A stretch of DNA of 64,000 bases from a phage: sequence record OR896157.1. One strand, written 5' to 3'. Each line of letters begins with the position of its first letter. Positions within the stretch are counted from its first letter, which is position 1. A program made the translations under genes and the position numbers. The notes beneath the pieces were generated by a model. The model searched no databases. It was not told the origin of the DNA and was given only the letters and a program-made list of their open reading frames with translations. Positions 15,595-61,080 of this stretch are shown piece after piece.

Positions 15595-15928
15595 TGACAG
15601 CCTCCGACCACTTTTTAGTTTTAAGATGAAGTTGACGATTCAACTCTTCGGTAACTGCAAGAGCAACTTCTTCATGAGAAGCTCCGTCCATTTTATCACG
15701 CATATGCAACCAAAGAGCATCAATTACACAATTAATTACATCTGCACATTCGCCAGCAAAGATTTCCTTCTGGCGATGAGGACGATTAATCCAATCACAC
15801 ATTTCACCAGTTTCAGAAGAAAGCTGTAACATTACGGATGTGATGTTACGCCATGGTTTACGTTCGGTATAATTAGCCGAAACACGAAGTACTGGAGTGA
15901 TATCTAATACTTGCATTATTTCTTCCAT
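15581..15928 (-). CDS. hypothetical protein (115 aa), possibly MazG-like all-alpha NTP pyrophosphatase
   Basis: acidic clusters ETGEM...AGECADVINCVIDALW resemble MazG metal-binding helices; weak. Confidence 0.4.
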   Translation of the reverse strand: MEEIMQVLDITPVLRVSANYTERKPWRNITSVMLQLSSETGEMCDWINRPHRQKEIFAGECADVINCVIDALWLHMRDKMDGASHEEVALAVTEELNRQLHLKTKKWSEAVNAIV

Positions 15929-16569
15929 TTCATAGTTTTGAGAATTTCAATAGCTTTCTTGCGTTCAGATTCGCTTTCGATTTTTAACACCATCACGCCT
16001 TCAACTTCTGCGTTCCACTCTTCAGCTTCAAGAGTCATTTCTTCATCTTCGAAAAAGTGTTCGTTAATAAACCCTGGATGAACCACGTCAAAATATTTAA
16101 GTTCAGATTTAACTAAAGCGAAATTAAGCACTTGAAGAGTTCCAGTTACGTCACGGAACGAAATTCTTTTAGTGCGAGAATAACCACAAGTATAGTCAAC
16201 AACTTCTACAGTAAATGGCTTTGTTCCTACACTTAAAGCCCAACGCTTATTGATTGGACTAAGAGCAACAAAAGAATGCAAATCTTTGCAACGATATACT
16301 GTTCCTGGAACCCATTCTGATGATTTTTCGACAACATCAAAATAATTAGATTCTTTATCATAAAGATAAAAGAACTCTGGCGAACGAGTTCCATCTGCCA
16401 TTACAGCCTCAGAAACGTCCTTTCCATCCATGGCCGCAACAGTAAATGAGCCTCCATGAATTTCAATAAAGCGGCTAATATCTTCGTTATACGGCTCTAA
16501 TTTAACAAATGAATCTTCTAATTCTGGGTCAAGACGGTAAGTTAATCCAAGCTTATATTCTGCGGCCAT
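15916..16569 (-). CDS. hypothetical protein (217 aa)
   Basis: minus-strand ORF, coupled. Confidence 0.5.
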   Translation of the reverse strand: MAAEYKLGLTYRLDPELEDSFVKLEPYNEDISRFIEIHGGSFTVAAMDGKDVSEAVMADGTRSPEFFYLYDKESNYFDVVEKSSEWVPGTVYRCKDLHSFVALSPINKRWALSVGTKPFTVEVVDYTCGYSRTKRISFRDVTGTLQVLNFALVKSELKYFDVVHPGFINEHFFEDEEMTLEAEEWNAEVEGVMVLKIESESERKKAIEILKTMKWKK

Positions 16570-28431: not shown

Positions 28432-28818
28432 TTAAAATAGTTTGAAACGTTTTTTCTTTCTCATAATTTCGGCGTGAGCCTGTTGAATTTGTATTTTAAT
28501 ACATTTTTCAACATGTGGTGCAAGGTCGGCTTTTCGTGATTCGTCCAACGTAGAGAACTCTAGTGACACCTGGCCGCTTTCGTCCAAGTGTAATGAGGTA
28601 ACATATACGATATGTTCCTCGCCATCCTCTAGGGTTATCAGGATTTCCTGAACGACATTCTCCATAGCCTTTTGGACTATTTCTAGACTCTTTTTAAACA
28701 TCCGCTCAGTTCTTTCAAATTCCCCCTCCTGAGAGGGGGTTTCGTCCTGAACTTCAACTTCAGTCAAATCGAGGTCTAAGTCCTCGAAATTATTCTTCAT
28801 CGTAATTTTCCAGTTCAT
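28432..28818 (-). CDS. hypothetical acidic protein at the T4 gene 40 position
   Basis: sits between 41 and uvsX; sequence identity to T4 gp40 not recognised. Confidence 0.4.
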   Translation of the reverse strand: MNWKITMKNNFEDLDLDLTEVEVQDETPSQEGEFERTERMFKKSLEIVQKAMENVVQEILITLEDGEEHIVYVTSLHLDESGQVSLEFSTLDESRKADLAPHVEKCIKIQIQQAHAEIMRKKKRFKLF

Positions 28819-29953
28819 CTTCGATTGAAGCTGGAGTTGCTCTTACTTCGCCTTCCGGAGCATGGAACTCTTCGGTCTTCGAATTAATCAGAGCATCAAC
28901 TTCTTCATCTACTACTGCATTGGTTTCAATAGCACCCAGCTGATAGCGATTTTTAATAGCATCGCGGAATGGCTGATGTTTAAACAGAGGGCCCCAGAAT
29001 GCGGTGCTTGAAGTATCTTTTGCACGCCATGATTTCTCTTCGCGAACCATTTCACCGGTATCTACGTCCAGATATTCACGAGCATACCAACCGTTTTTAG
29101 GTTTAACTACAAAACCAAGTTCCAGCGCCATATCCAACAGACCAGAGTATGGGTCAATACCGCCATCGAATTTAACATCAATGAAGAACTTACTCTTCTC
29201 TTTAACGGTACGAGATTTCTCAGCATTCAGAACAAACTGATAACCTTGAAGGTCTGTACCATCTTTAATCTGACGCTTACCGATGATGAACACAGTATCT
29301 GCTGAGTACATTGGACCTGTACCACCAGTCATCACAGTCTTACTGAACATCTCAATTGTTTCGATCGTGTGGTTAACCGCAACGCATGGAATGTTTTTAA
29401 TAGAGAAGTAAGGTGTAACAATACGGAACAGAGACTTCAGTGATTTCGCACGAGTCATATCTGCAACTGATTTTTCGTTCAGAGCATCTTCTGTTTCTTT
29501 CTTAGAAGCAAGGTTACCGATGGAGTCGATGAATACGATAACTTTCTCACCGCGTTCAATTTCTTCCAGCTGGTTGACCATGTCAATCTTAAGCTGCTCA
29601 ACAGATTGCACAGGAGTGTGTACTACACGGTCCGGGTCAACACCCATTGCACGAAGATATGCTGGAGTGATACCGAATTCTGAGTCGTAGAACAGACAAA
29701 TAGCATCCGGATATTTTGTCATATAAGCGGAAACCATAGTCAGACTCATATTTGACTTGAAGTGCTTTGACGGGCCCGCAAAGATTGTTAAACCTGATTG
29801 CATGCCACCATCTAATGCACCTGAAATCGCGATATTAAGCATCGGAATCTTAGTACGAACTACATCCTTTTCATTGAAGAATTTGGATTTATCCAGAGAT
29901 GCGGTCATTTTAGAAGTGGATGCTTTAATCAGACGAGATTTTAAATCAGACAT
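28790..29953 (-). CDS. uvsX: UvsX recombinase (RecA-like)
   Basis: 387 aa; RecA-fold with Walker A-like GPSKHFKS, matches remembered T4 UvsX. Confidence 0.9.
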   Translation of the reverse strand: MSDLKSRLIKASTSKMTASLDKSKFFNEKDVVRTKIPMLNIAISGALDGGMQSGLTIFAGPSKHFKSNMSLTMVSAYMTKYPDAICLFYDSEFGITPAYLRAMGVDPDRVVHTPVQSVEQLKIDMVNQLEEIERGEKVIVFIDSIGNLASKKETEDALNEKSVADMTRAKSLKSLFRIVTPYFSIKNIPCVAVNHTIETIEMFSKTVMTGGTGPMYSADTVFIIGKRQIKDGTDLQGYQFVLNAEKSRTVKEKSKFFIDVKFDGGIDPYSGLLDMALELGFVVKPKNGWYAREYLDVDTGEMVREEKSWRAKDTSSTAFWGPLFKHQPFRDAIKNRYQLGAIETNAVVDEEVDALINSKTEEFHAPEGEVRATPASIEDELENYDEE

Positions 29954-45597: not shown

Positions 45598-45626
45598 ATA
45601 GTAACACCTTCTGCAACAGATGTAAA
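45598..45626 (-). promoter_or_regulatory. early promoter (TTTACA-17-TACTAT)
   Basis: minus strand gaccgTTTACA, 17 nt, TACTAT. Confidence 0.5.
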
Positions 45627-45646
45627 CGGTCATAGAAATAAAAATG

Positions 45647-45665
45647 GGGACCACCAGGGTCCCCG
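45647..45665 (-). terminator. intrinsic terminator (GGGGACC-loop-GGTCCCC then AUUUUUAUUU)
   Basis: downstream of the nrdH region. Confidence 0.5.
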
Positions 45666-45715: not shown

Positions 45716-46025
45716 TTAATCCAGTGAATCGAGGTCGTAACCTAGTTCACCAAGTCTCTCTTTTATTGTTCTTAGATTTGGGTAATATACACCACCGAGG
45801 ATGACGACCGGGTAATTGACTCGCTTGCTTGGGAAAACTCCTGAGGCTTTAGCGGCTTCTTCAATCGCTTTGTAGTTGTATTGGACCGGCCATGTAGATA
45901 ACGTCGATGAACTCATACGGAATTTTGAATTCGTCAAAAATTTCTTTGACCGTTGCGCAACCAGCGCAGCGGTAGACGTCTTCCGGAATTCCATAAATTT
46001 TAGCTCTTAGTTGTGAGTTTTCCAT
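45716..46025 (-). pseudogene. nrdH: NrdH-like glutaredoxin interrupted by a +1 frame change
   Basis: N-terminal half (KIYG...CAGC...FKIPYEFIDV) is in one frame (ORF 45861-46049) and C-terminal half (YPVVILGG...LRTIKERLGELG) in the +1 frame (ORF 45716-45994); junction near 45880-45925. Confidence 0.5.
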
Positions 46026-46275
46026 TGACTGTAACCTCAAGCTTATCATCTAAACCAATATCCTTAAGCGCATCAGTCATTCGACGAATACGAGCAGTAA
46101 CTTCTTCGGGAGAAAGTTTAGGTTTATCATCGGTCTTAGGAGCGATAATCACTGCCAGTCCGAATACCAAAAGTGCAGGTACAGCAACAATGATTCCGTA
46201 AGCAATAACAAGATAAGCCAGAAGCTTAGATAAAGCAGTACGAGTCCCGTTGAAGAAAGATTTGATGTATTTCAT
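46000..46275 (-). CDS. small membrane protein (91 aa)
   Basis: hydrophobic segment LLAYLVIAYGIIVAVPALLVFGLAVIIA. Confidence 0.45.
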   Translation of the reverse strand: MKYIKSFFNGTRTALSKLLAYLVIAYGIIVAVPALLVFGLAVIIAPKTDDKPKLSPEEVTARIRRMTDALKDIGLDDKLEVTVNGKLTTKS

Positions 46276-46374: not shown

Positions 46375-46860
46375 TTATTCAGGATGTTCATTGTGTTCCT
46401 CATTCCAAGTTCCGCTGTTAATCCACAGCCTTTGATTGTCACTGCCTCTCCAAAGCTTTTTAGTTGGTAGAGACTGTTCATATTTACCATCGATAATAAC
46501 ATCAACATAATTTAGCAGTTCCAAGTCCTTGATATCTTCGAACTTGTAGCCCGTCCACATCCAAACATCTTTATGAGGATGACTAGTGTGTAAGCACTTA
46601 AGTAGTGCTTCTATAGTTTCTCTGTTGTCTGGATAAAGAGGGTCTCCACCTGTAAGAGTGATTCCTTGAATGTAATCTTTGCTTAAAAGCTCTCTGATTT
46701 CTCCAATGGTTTCACCGGTGAATTCTGTTCCATTACGCGGATTCCATGTAGATTTATTGTAACATCCTTCACATTTATGCAAACACCCGGTGACAAAAAG
46801 AACGACCCTGCAACCAGGGCCATTCACAAAATCACAAGGATAGATTCTGTCATACTTCAC
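46375..46860 (-). CDS. nrdG: anaerobic ribonucleotide reductase activating protein NrdG (radical SAM)
   Basis: 161 aa; YDRIYPCDFVNGPGCRVVLFVTGCLHKCEGCYN...SLPTKKLWRGSDNQRLW matches remembered T4 NrdG; GTG start. Confidence 0.9.
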   Translation of the reverse strand: MKYDRIYPCDFVNGPGCRVVLFVTGCLHKCEGCYNKSTWNPRNGTEFTGETIGEIRELLSKDYIQGITLTGGDPLYPDNRETIEALLKCLHTSHPHKDVWMWTGYKFEDIKDLELLNYVDVIIDGKYEQSLPTKKLWRGSDNQRLWINSGTWNEEHNEHPE

Positions 46861-48679
46861 AGTGCTTTGTCCTATGCATTATTTCTTTGTTTTTACCAAG
46901 ATTAAATCCACGTTCAGATGGATTGCCAAGATATCCACAAGTGCGTCGTATTGTGTTCATCTTTTTAGGGTCTGATTCACCACATTCATGACAGACAAAT
47001 CCATCTTCCGTTGGAGTCATTTCATGAGTTGAACCGCATGTAAAGCACTTATCAACTGGCATGTTTACACCGAAGTAATCAAGATGCTCAACAGCATAAT
47101 CCCACACTGCTTCAAGACCTTTAAGGTTGTTCTTCATATCAGGAAGTTCTACATAACTGATATGACCACCCTTAGCGATGAAGTGGAAAATAGCTTCACG
47201 GTCAATTTTACCAAATGGAGAAATCTTTTCTTCTACTGAAACATGGAAACTGTTGGTGTACCACCCTTTATCGGTGACGCCTTTGATATCACCATGGACT
47301 TCAGCGTCAATCTTACAGAAGCGATAGCACAAATTCTCTGCTGGAGTTGAATAAAGACTAAAAGCAAAGCCAGTCTCTTTAGTCCATTCAGCAAGATAAT
47401 CATTCAGGCATTTCAGAAGAAGCTTACCGATATCAGCACCCAATAGAGTTTGAACTTCATGGATTCCGATGTACCCTAACGAAATTGAAGAACGACCATT
47501 TCGGAAGATGTCGAGAATCTCATCGTTTGGCTTAAGACGAACACCAAAAGCACCTTCTTGATAAAGAATAGGAGCTACAGAAGCTGTTACACCACGAAGT
47601 GATTCAATACGAGCTAAAAGAGCTTCTTTACAAATCTTCAAACGGTCATCAAGAATGTGGAAGAACTTGGTCAAGTCTGGACGGCCATCAACCATACAAT
47701 CGAGTGCTACTCGTGGTAGGTTAATTGTCACTACACCAAGATTATTACGACCATCGAGAATTTCTTCGCCGTCTTTGTTCTTCCATACGCCCAGGAATGA
47801 GCGACATCCCATTGGAGAAACTGGAACAGAAGAGCCAGTGATTAGACGGTTATTCTTTGAACTAATGATGTCAGGATACATTCGCTTACTTGCACATTCC
47901 AATGCAAGTTGTTTGATGTCATAGTTCACATCAGTAGGATGAAGGTTAATTCCTTCTTCAACAAACATAACGAGCTTAGGAAAAATCGGAGTGATTCCGT
48001 CTCGTCCAAGACCTTTGATTCTATTTTTGAGAATAGCTTTTTGAATCATTCGTTCATAATCGCTTGTACCAGTACCAAAGGTAATTGTCACGAATGGAGT
48101 TTGTCCATTTGAACTGAACAAAGTATTGACTTCATATTCATAAGCTTGGAATGCGTCGTATACGTCTTTTTCTGTTTTCTCAATCGCGTATACATAGTCA
48201 TTGACATGCTCAATGCCGTATCTTTCTGCATCGTGTAAATGCTTAAAGAAAGTCTTCTCTACAAAAGGAGCAAGTACAACATCAACATTAGCAAATGTCG
48301 TTCCACCATATTGATGTGAAGCTACTTGAGCAGTGATTTGAGCCATAATAGCAGTTGCTACACCAATTGACTTTGGAGTCTCAATTTGAGCATTACCAAG
48401 TTTAAATCCATTGCTGAGCATACCCTTCAAATCGACTAAGCAACAGTTAGTGAATGGAAGAGCTGGAGAATAGTCTAAGTCATGAAAATGAATAAGACCT
48501 TTATCATGAGCATTTAGAACAGTAGGAGAGATAACCTGACGAGCAATGTGTTTTGAAACAATTCCTGCCATCAGGTCTCGTTGAGTTGGAAAAACACGAG
48601 AATCTTTATTAGCATTCTCGTTTAGTAAGTCTTTGTTGGTGCGGTTGATTAAACCCTGGATTTCTGATTCAATTGTCAT
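46850..48679 (-). CDS. nrdD: anaerobic ribonucleoside-triphosphate reductase NrdD, uninterrupted
   Basis: 609 aa continuous ORF; glycyl-radical C-terminus ...RRTCGYLGNP... and C-x2-C...C-x2-C zinc site; no intron. Confidence 0.9.
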   Translation of the reverse strand: MTIESEIQGLINRTNKDLLNENANKDSRVFPTQRDLMAGIVSKHIARQVISPTVLNAHDKGLIHFHDLDYSPALPFTNCCLVDLKGMLSNGFKLGNAQIETPKSIGVATAIMAQITAQVASHQYGGTTFANVDVVLAPFVEKTFFKHLHDAERYGIEHVNDYVYAIEKTEKDVYDAFQAYEYEVNTLFSSNGQTPFVTITFGTGTSDYERMIQKAILKNRIKGLGRDGITPIFPKLVMFVEEGINLHPTDVNYDIKQLALECASKRMYPDIISSKNNRLITGSSVPVSPMGCRSFLGVWKNKDGEEILDGRNNLGVVTINLPRVALDCMVDGRPDLTKFFHILDDRLKICKEALLARIESLRGVTASVAPILYQEGAFGVRLKPNDEILDIFRNGRSSISLGYIGIHEVQTLLGADIGKLLLKCLNDYLAEWTKETGFAFSLYSTPAENLCYRFCKIDAEVHGDIKGVTDKGWYTNSFHVSVEEKISPFGKIDREAIFHFIAKGGHISYVELPDMKNNLKGLEAVWDYAVEHLDYFGVNMPVDKCFTCGSTHEMTPTEDGFVCHECGESDPKKMNTIRRTCGYLGNPSERGFNLGKNKEIMHRTKHCEV

Positions 48680-50237: not shown

Positions 50238-50519
50238 TCATTTCAAATATTCCTTCAATTCAGTAAATCCACCGATAGGCGAACCTTTTTCATCAAAAAT
50301 CTGGGGCATTGTCAAACCAACACGAGATGGTCTATTCAGACGCGTCAGAAGCTCAGAGATAACTTCTTCATTAAAGATTGGTGTACCATCTTCATTATTA
50401 CCTGAAGTCACAGAGATGAACTCGTAATCTTTACGTTTAGCATCTAACAGACGCTTAGAGTTAATGCATGGAACACATTTAAAATGCTTGCTGTCGTAAC
50501 CGAAAACCTTGAATGTCAC
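50238..50519 (-). CDS. nrdC: thioredoxin/glutaredoxin NrdC
   Basis: FKVFGYDS..HFKCVPC...GLTMPQIFDEKGSPIGGF.EL.EYLK matches remembered T4 NrdC; likely GTG start at 50519 after GAGGA RBS (track ORF begins at a TTG). Confidence 0.8.
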   Translation of the reverse strand: MTFKVFGYDSKHFKCVPCINSKRLLDAKRKDYEFISVTSGNNEDGTPIFNEEVISELLTRLNRPSRVGLTMPQIFDEKGSPIGGFTELKEYLK

Positions 50520-60858: not shown

Positions 60859-61080
60859 CTATAAGAAGCGCCATGAGCCATTACGATATGCAACTGAACG
60901 GTCCATCATTTCGGAAGAGGTAGAACTTCCGCTGAGTTTGTCATGAACTACTGTAATTTTGCGTCCGTCAGCAAAAATAAATTCGGCTACTGGACGCAGG
61001 CCAGTAAAGCCTTTGTCCACAGTTGCATTAAATTTAGCAGATTCACCGTTGATAATATAGTTCTGGTCTTGTTTAAGCAT
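60859..61080 (-). CDS. hypothetical protein (73 aa)
   Basis: minus-strand ORF. Confidence 0.4.
   Translation of the reverse strand: MLKQDQNYIINGESAKFNATVDKGFTGLRPVAEFIFADGRKITVVHDKLSGSSTSSEMMDRSVAYRNGSWRFL

Follow-up and report, generated by a model that had tools for sequence, protein, structure and literature searches.

T4-type phages carry nrdH, which Petrov et al. (2010, PMC2993671) placed among the auxiliary-metabolism 'quasicore' genes, a group of which a combination of some members is needed. No interrupted nrdH was found among the 128 phage genomes covered by Dwivedi et al. (2013, PMC3653736). The closest described copies to the gene treated here are those of phages PG7 (AHI60968.1) and CC31 (ADB81561.1), which lie in the same position, in the order 49 - nrdD - nrdG - two small ORFs - nrdH - ... 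- 55. At the DNA level, the T4-type nrdH of Karamvirus relatives is 95-99% identical to the window, by which the whole analysed stretch of 64,000 nucleotides is meant, and the T4-like 'NrdH glutaredoxin' genes of Tequatrovirus and other genera show 35-39% identity in tblastn. A tblastn search with the intact Karamvirus protein retrieved 1219 T4-like records at 35-41% identity, many of them annotated as NrdH glutaredoxin, and in 1199 of the 1219 at least 80% of the protein was covered in one place, so that the gene is intact in at least 1199. Compared with nrdH of PG7 and CC31, the window copy alone is 5 nt short and frame-broken, and carries an A25T exchange beside the CxxC motif.

The T4 glutaredoxin/thioredoxin NrdC (PDB 1aba and 1aaz) has the same small-redoxin architecture and a weak likeness to the N-terminal part of the protein (E = 0.015, residues 9-47 against residues 3-41), which comprises strand 1, the CxxC motif, helix 1 and strand 2. 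However, this likeness is marginal and limited to the N-terminal half, NrdC is encoded by a different gene, and its active site reads CVYC, whereas CAGC is found here. A separate glutaredoxin-like ORF of the window (50241-50519) is intact and has a weak Pfam match of 18.2 bits. The bacterial NrdH-redoxins, reductants of the class Ib ribonucleotide reductase (RNR) that are described by the model TIGR02194, resemble the phage protein in name, small size and CxxC redoxin fold, but the phage gene is devoid of the CVQC and WSGFRP motifs and is linked to the class III genes nrdDG and not to class Ib. The TIGR02194 model gave no match in an NCBIfam scan at E <= 0.1, which returned only Uxx_star (16.1 bits against a cut-off of 66) and YruB (15.8 against 88.6). 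As judged from its sequence, the phage protein does not belong to the bacterial NrdH-redoxins, and 'nrdH' is to be read as the T4 gene name only.

A second frame-split nrdH was encountered in Klebsiella phage CPRSA (OM971648.1, Slopekvirus), in which the CxxC half and the C-terminal half likewise do not share a frame and are separated in the loop that follows strand 2, as in the window. In this locus (L014, 601-880), the N-terminal half ends with ...HPALKS and a stop, the C-terminal part IEELAKRV...FTYPRIFVDGNFIGG is read in another frame, and the sibling phage CPRSB is intact. The CPRSA split differs from the one described here in being an independent event in a distant genus, with about 35% protein identity. 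As the CPRSA record is unusually long and contains many small CDS, an artefact is no less likely in that case than a real split.

The nrdH locus of a Karamvirus genome

A segment of 701 bases around nrdH matched 33 phage records at 90-99% identity, all of them CC31/PG7-like and T4-type; these phages belong to the genus Karamvirus and have Enterobacter, Klebsiella, Cronobacter and related hosts. A 24-kb stretch of the window was approximately 95-96% identical to Karamvirus records. Judging by these matches, the window is a Karamvirus, that is a CC31/PG7-like, T4-type Enterobacter phage.

On the minus strand, the gene order is 49 (endonuclease VII), nrdD, nrdG, a 39-aa ORF, a 91-aa ORF, nrdH, several small ORFs and 55 (late sigma factor). 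The position of nrdH after 49-nrdD-nrdG and before gene 55 agrees with the annotated loci of PG7, CC31, EnC15 and UFV01. An earlier note on this DNA had described the neighbouring nrdG and nrdD as intact, and both are indeed read in a single frame: nrdG (46375..46860, minus strand), the class III RNR activase of 161 aa, is 100% identical to UFV01, and nrdD (46850..48679, minus strand), the class III RNR catalytic subunit of 609 aa, is 99.7% identical. Pfam Radical_SAM and Fer4_12 are recorded on identical nrdG in related loci, and 21 public contigs, PG7 among them, encode the same NrdD protein, which carries Pfam NRDD and Gly_radical. The upstream membrane-like ORF of 91 aa (46000..46275, minus strand) is also intact, is 97.8% identical to a UFV01 CDS in one frame and overlaps the start of nrdH with its end by 26 nt.

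Elsewhere in the window, two further differences from relatives were observed. The uvsX-like recombinase (28790-29953, minus strand) is a continuous ORF of 387 aa, whereas the UFV01 copy is interrupted by a homing-endonuclease gene and is annotated as two 'recombination protein' CDS. A hypothetical protein of 169 aa (gene 15919-16401, minus strand) carries a private 24-nt in-frame deletion at about 16030 in comparison with EcL8g and UFV01.

The nrdH gene extends on the minus strand from ATG 46025 to TAA 45716 and is split over two overlapping ORFs. The first ORF (45861..46049, minus strand) encodes ...KIYGIPEDVYRCAGCATVKEIFDEFKIPYEFIDVIYMAG, followed by PIQLQSD and a stop, and the second (45716..45994, minus strand), offset by +1 nt, ends with ...VQYNYKAIEEAAKASGVFPSKRVNYPVVILGGVYYPNLRTIKERLGELGYDLDSLD and a stop (the same end is also given as ...VQYNYKAIEEAAKASGVFPSKRVNYPVVILGG...DSLD and stop). 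When intact UFV01 NrdH was aligned to the window by tblastn, residues 1-50 were found in frame -3 (46025..45876) and residues 49-104 in frame -1 (45886..45719), and the two halves jointly covered residues 1-104 of the UFV01 protein at 94% and 100% identity, respectively. The 5' fragment (45861..46025, minus strand) thus consists of ATG 46025, 47 native codons M1-G47, seven out-of-frame codons for PIQLQSD and a premature TGA at 45861-45863. The 3' fragment (45716..45886, minus strand) lies in the +1 frame and contains V49-D104 and the TAA at 45716-45718, with 100% identity over residues 49-104 in tblastn.

ATG 46049 is merely the first ATG of a program-made ORF. From the sequence, the true start of nrdH is most likely ATG 46025, since this is the annotated start in relatives and a Shine-Dalgarno-like GAGG (46035..46038, minus strand) lies 9 nt upstream of it; the same GAGG precedes the annotated start in SonariX, EnC15, PG7 and CC31. 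Neither a start codon nor a ribosome-binding site was read at the right place for the 3' fragment itself. The only in-frame ATGs upstream of it are at 45994 and about 45916; they would add 18-36 junk residues and have no Shine-Dalgarno-like sequence.

The deletion and its predicted product

The corresponding DNA of SonariX, EnC15, PG7 and CC31 is a single ORF of 315 nt, annotated as nrdH or glutaredoxin in EnC15, PG7 and CC31 and as a hypothetical protein in SonariX. In alignments to every relative, 5 nt are missing from the window, CCG(GTGAC)GTCC having become CCGGTCC. The junction lies in codons 47-49 (45884..45887, minus strand), and the missing bases may be placed as GTGAC, TGACG or GACGT, three equivalent placements with GT on both flanks. 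The alignment contains exactly one gap at the junction, where the window has ATGGCCGGTCCAATAC in place of the ATGGCCGGTGACGTCCAATAC of relatives, and this gap sits within an alignment that is otherwise 98-99% identical. The undeleted allele, within the continuous 315-nt ORF, reads GGTGACGTCC (also given as CCGGTGACGTCC) against CCGGTCC in the window, and blastn against two relatives placed the same private deletion at 45887. A single uninterrupted ORF of about 104 codons is absent from the window, in which the deletion gives the premature TGA.

The earlier note had interpreted the locus as one glutaredoxin gene, nrdH, split by a single frame change. One gene and one frame change were confirmed, but the lesion is 5 nt and not one base. 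The same note had located the switch within 45880-45925 around a tract, and this agrees with the tract ATGGCCGGTCC (45893..45883) and the junction at 45884-45887. It had proposed alignment to intact nrdH homologs as a way to place the indel; this alignment put the indel at 45884-45887, and the two halves form one ORF of 104 codons in all relatives. The reading as two unrelated ORFs was rejected, as they are halves of a single ORF in every relative.

Among all records and collections covered, the deletion is private to the window. A 91-nt PG7 probe over the deletion site detected no length change in any of the 33 phage records, and five IMG/VR contigs contain the full protein of 104 residues. 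Exact look-ups of the window NrdD and of the 88-aa downstream protein led to 20 further places in ENA, Logan and NCBI; in each of the approximately 13-14 ENA/Logan loci that were checked, nrdH is an intact 315-nt ORF. The 33-mer over the junction was absent from IMG/VR, JGI metagenome contigs and GTDB genomes, and neither the deletion allele nor the A25T allele was found in IMG/VR, JGI metagenomes, GTDB genomes or phage GenBank records. Four possible truncated products had no exact match in a collection of about 15 billion proteins.

One ENA scaffold (MUNK22-1_SAMEA7428267_METAG-scaffold_174277; L025, 1-696) matches over its first 221 nt, which comprise the upstream ORF and nrdH codons 1-31, and then switches to unrelated DNA, creating a chimeric ORF of 88 aa (P0004). 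This could be either a metagenome chimera or a relative in which the 3' part of nrdH was replaced.

Domain searches were carried out with the intact PG7 protein and with the fragment. Pfam Glutaredoxin (PF00462) matched residues 20-81 of the PG7 protein with 22.8 bits, just below the cut-off of 22.9, and residues 19-42 of the N-terminal fragment of the window with 19.6 bits. PHROG 22 ('thioredoxin domain') matched residues 6-101 of the PG7 protein (E = 1.1e-9) and the 5' fragment of nrdH (E = 1.6e-5). From the PF00462 match over 20-81 and the PHROG 22 match over 6-101 it follows that the domain spans the break at residues 47/48. An AlphaFold model of low confidence (three-sequence alignment, pLDDT 53.5) gave a helix at 21-33, a strand at 40-43, a helix at 53-63, strands at 75-78 and 81-83 and a helix at 86-95, and in this low-confidence model the order of secondary-structure elements fits a thioredoxin fold. 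With equally low confidence, the model would put the break in the loop after strand 2. This loop is the sole length-variable part of the family (MAGDV, MEKEV, MADDEQLGNSQV) and the most polymorphic loop of the gene.

The CxxC active site C20-A-G-C23 (45957..45968, minus strand) is invariant in relatives and in the homologs P0002 and P0003, which are 77-82% identical. Y73-P74-V75-V76 (the cis-Pro strand) and G79-G80 are conserved as well and are still encoded in the window, but in the +1 frame past the premature stop. The window product is predicted to consist of 47 native residues including CAGC and seven aberrant ones, without the C-terminal half of the thioredoxin fold. Such a truncated product would keep the CxxC half, be devoid of the YPVV(I/L)LGG segment and the C-terminal helix, and is predicted to be unable to form the fold.

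Apart from the deletion, little has changed in the gene. Upon re-insertion of GTGAC, the resulting protein of 104 residues equals the Karamvirus consensus except for A25T, and the repaired gene has 3-8 synonymous differences from individual relatives. The A25T exchange (45950-45952, GCR to ACG) is private and lies two residues past the CAGC active site; taken with the frameshift, it faintly suggests relaxed constraint. Across ten Karamvirus nrdH alleles, pN/pS is 0.064, which indicates at the sequence level that intact nrdH is under strong purifying selection in the genus. Because only A25T and the 3-8 synonymous differences remain after repair, the deletion would be recent; more generally, the lack of further decay implies an event that is either very recent or not real.

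Explanations of the split gene

The split is probably due to a recent and real inactivating 5-bp deletion in an accessory gene of one Karamvirus genome. The ancestral ...ATG GCC GGT GAC GTC CAA... would have lost GTGAC (or TGACG or GACGT), a segment between two GT dinucleotides, as expected of replication slippage or microhomology-mediated joining; as a pointer to a specific mutational mechanism, a microhomology of 2 nt is weak evidence. Translation from ATG 46025 would then yield the 47 native residues (strand 1, CAGC, helix 1 and strand 2) and seven wrong ones before the TGA. The C-terminal 56 residues with YPVV (cis-Pro position), the GG motif and the last helix would not be made, and nrdH would thereby be inactivated.

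Three features might make such a loss tolerable: the auxiliary, 'quasi-core' nature of nrdH, the terminator-like hairpin behind it and the intact state of other small redoxin genes of the phage. The class III reductase of T4 and E. coli takes formate as reductant, and NrdDG therefore need not depend on NrdH. The strong hairpin, found by a consensus scan about 50 nt past the nrdH stop (45636..45664, minus strand), reads GGGGACCCTGGTGGTCCCC and then ATTTTTATTT, with a stem GGGGACC...GGTCCCC (45664-45646) and a T-run. According to this sequence, nrdH would be the last gene of its transcription unit, and owing to the hairpin no polarity is expected on the downstream gene. Past the hairpin, a sigma-70-like promoter match (45598-45626, minus strand) was observed for the next small gene.

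The quality of the assembly was assessed by translating the 127 annotated CDS of UFV01 and comparing them with the window by tblastn, in which approximately 110 matched. Among these, nrdH was the sole CDS split over two frames. Indels in which the window differs from two agreeing relatives were listed as well. Among them, the sole isolated one in conserved coding sequence with a length not divisible by three is the nrdH deletion; the remaining private indels of the window keep the frame, form compensating pairs in divergent segments or are intergenic changes in A/T runs. A generally poor assembly was rejected on these grounds. The longest homopolymer near the junction is T5, and to our knowledge the loss of 5 nt in non-homopolymer sequence is atypical of consensus errors from Illumina, 454, Ion Torrent or nanopore data. 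A 5-nt loss in non-repetitive sequence, together with no other frame-broken gene among about 110, favours a real deletion. On the other side, purifying selection in relatives and the intact gene in at least 1199 of 1219 T4-like records make a real loss somewhat unexpected.

The alternative that deserves most attention is an error of assembly, in which the phage DNA still has the 5 nt and an intact gene, and the bases dropped out while the consensus was built or polished or contigs were joined. If the assembler had taken up a minority variant, or an error had slipped in at the consensus or polishing step, the result would look the same as a deletion. This explanation is in line with a deletion allele that occurs nowhere else in the collections scanned, with an nrdH that is otherwise pristine and free of decay while it is under purifying selection in all relatives, and with possibly artefactual frame-split small genes in related records. 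Besides CPRSA nrdH, these include a pair of overlapping CDS of 38 and 46 aa in UFV01, which corresponds to a single ORF of 73 aa in the window (60859-61080, minus strand); by this comparison, it is probably the UFV01 copy that is frame-split. Moreover, the related WGS contig JAMWYM010000041.1 stops right at ...GGTGAC, which suggests that the spot can break assemblies, but this contig comes from a different genome (98.7% identical) and has no related motif at its other end. Against an assembly error, no other gene is frame-broken among the approximately 110 in the 64-kb window, the private indels in genes do not show the pattern of homopolymer errors, and a 5-nt deletion in complex sequence with a nearby run of at most T5 is an unusual platform error. 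Taken together, an assembly or consensus error is possible but unlikely. We infer that the deletion is biological rather than a consensus error, that it arose by slippage and that the gene is dispensable.

A more specific origin was considered for the deletion, namely a repair scar of a site-specific double-strand break by a CRISPR, restriction or homing nuclease at the palindrome GAC/GTC, with rejoining by GT microhomology and selection for loss of the target. By sequence logic, a blunt break at GAC/GTC, resection of the left end by 5 nt and GT pairing would give the exact junction observed. The contig JAMWYM010000041.1 was noted in this context as well. It belongs to GCA_023892975.1, is 98.7% identical over 4.35 kb (L023 4330-4354 corresponds to window 45885-45910) and ends with ...ATGGCCGGTGAC in nrdH. 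This end, precisely at ...GGTGAC, coincides with the centre of the GAC/GTC palindrome and with the 3' edge of the missing GTGAC. In addition, CC is the PAM of type I-F CRISPR systems and occurs just upstream, so that seed bases of a putative protospacer (GGTGACGTCCAATACAACTAC..., after CC) would be lost with the deletion.

However, nrdH has kept a second GACGTC 85 nt upstream (45975), and the number of GACGTC sites (4 compared with 5-9 expected) shows no notable depletion. Loss of a GACGTC restriction site is hence unsupported. A search of E. coli genomes and plasmids yielded no matching CRISPR spacer. According to annotation and tblastn matches, the phage encodes a hydroxymethylase and glucosyltransferases, and DNA modification by these enzymes protects against most restriction enzymes. 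The match with the contig end was noticed post hoc, the site lies in the most polymorphic loop of nrdH, and mixed-strain assemblies tend to break in polymorphic stretches. The contig end at the deletion site is treated as a coincidence, or at best as a low-probability lead, and a nuclease scar is very improbable.

Equally little weight falls on programmed recoding, in which the ribosome would shift by +1 or hop near codons 47-55, by a frameshift or a bypass in the style of gene 60, and produce a near-full-length NrdH. Starting at nt 20 of the gene, the +1 frame is open throughout the overlap, so that any shift before TGA 45861-45863 would reach the C-terminal half, and T4-type phages use translational bypassing in gene 60. 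In contrast, the split is private to the window and every relative examined has a plain ORF, and the codon before the stop, GAU, is unable to re-pair in the +1 frame (AUU). The frame overlap contains no X_XXY_YYZ heptamer, no +1 site of the CUU_UGA or CCC_UGA type and no homopolymer of at least 6 nt for transcriptional slippage. A take-off and landing pair of the gene-60 type was not detected either; by eye, there is no GAU or GAC among the +1 codons up to about 75 nt past the TGA. For a 111-nt segment that surrounds the site and extends downstream, the folding energy is -20.2 kcal/mol compared with -22.9 +/- 3.3 for shuffled sequences (z = +0.82), and 161 of 200 shuffles folded at least as well as the real RNA. 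A +1 frameshift, transcriptional slippage and a gene-60-type hop were rejected for lack of motifs, structure and conservation. The programmed frameshift that the earlier note had listed as a possible cause, beside a sequencing or assembly indel and a genuine pseudogene, did not hold up, given a private split without slippery or +1 motif, a longest run of T5 and a fold at z = +0.82; recoding is thus very improbable. That either one applies, a 5-nt loss as the scar of a sequence-specific break at a recurrent break point GAC/GTC or a split gene expressed via unrecognised recoding, is very doubtful.

Meaning for annotation and for Karamvirus

The nrdH of the window is a frameshift allele, private to it, of an accessory gene that is well known and widely conserved in T4-type phages, and mechanistically it is nothing new. 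For annotation, a frameshifted nrdH pseudogene with a 5-nt deletion should be recorded at the locus, in place of a recoding site or a pair of hypothetical proteins. Provided that the deletion is real, the phage is a natural knock-out, which would mean that a Karamvirus propagates without an NrdH-type redoxin despite a pN/pS of about 0.06 in the genus. It would then also be a ready-made strain for analysing the role of T4-type NrdH beside the formate-dependent class III reductase NrdDG.
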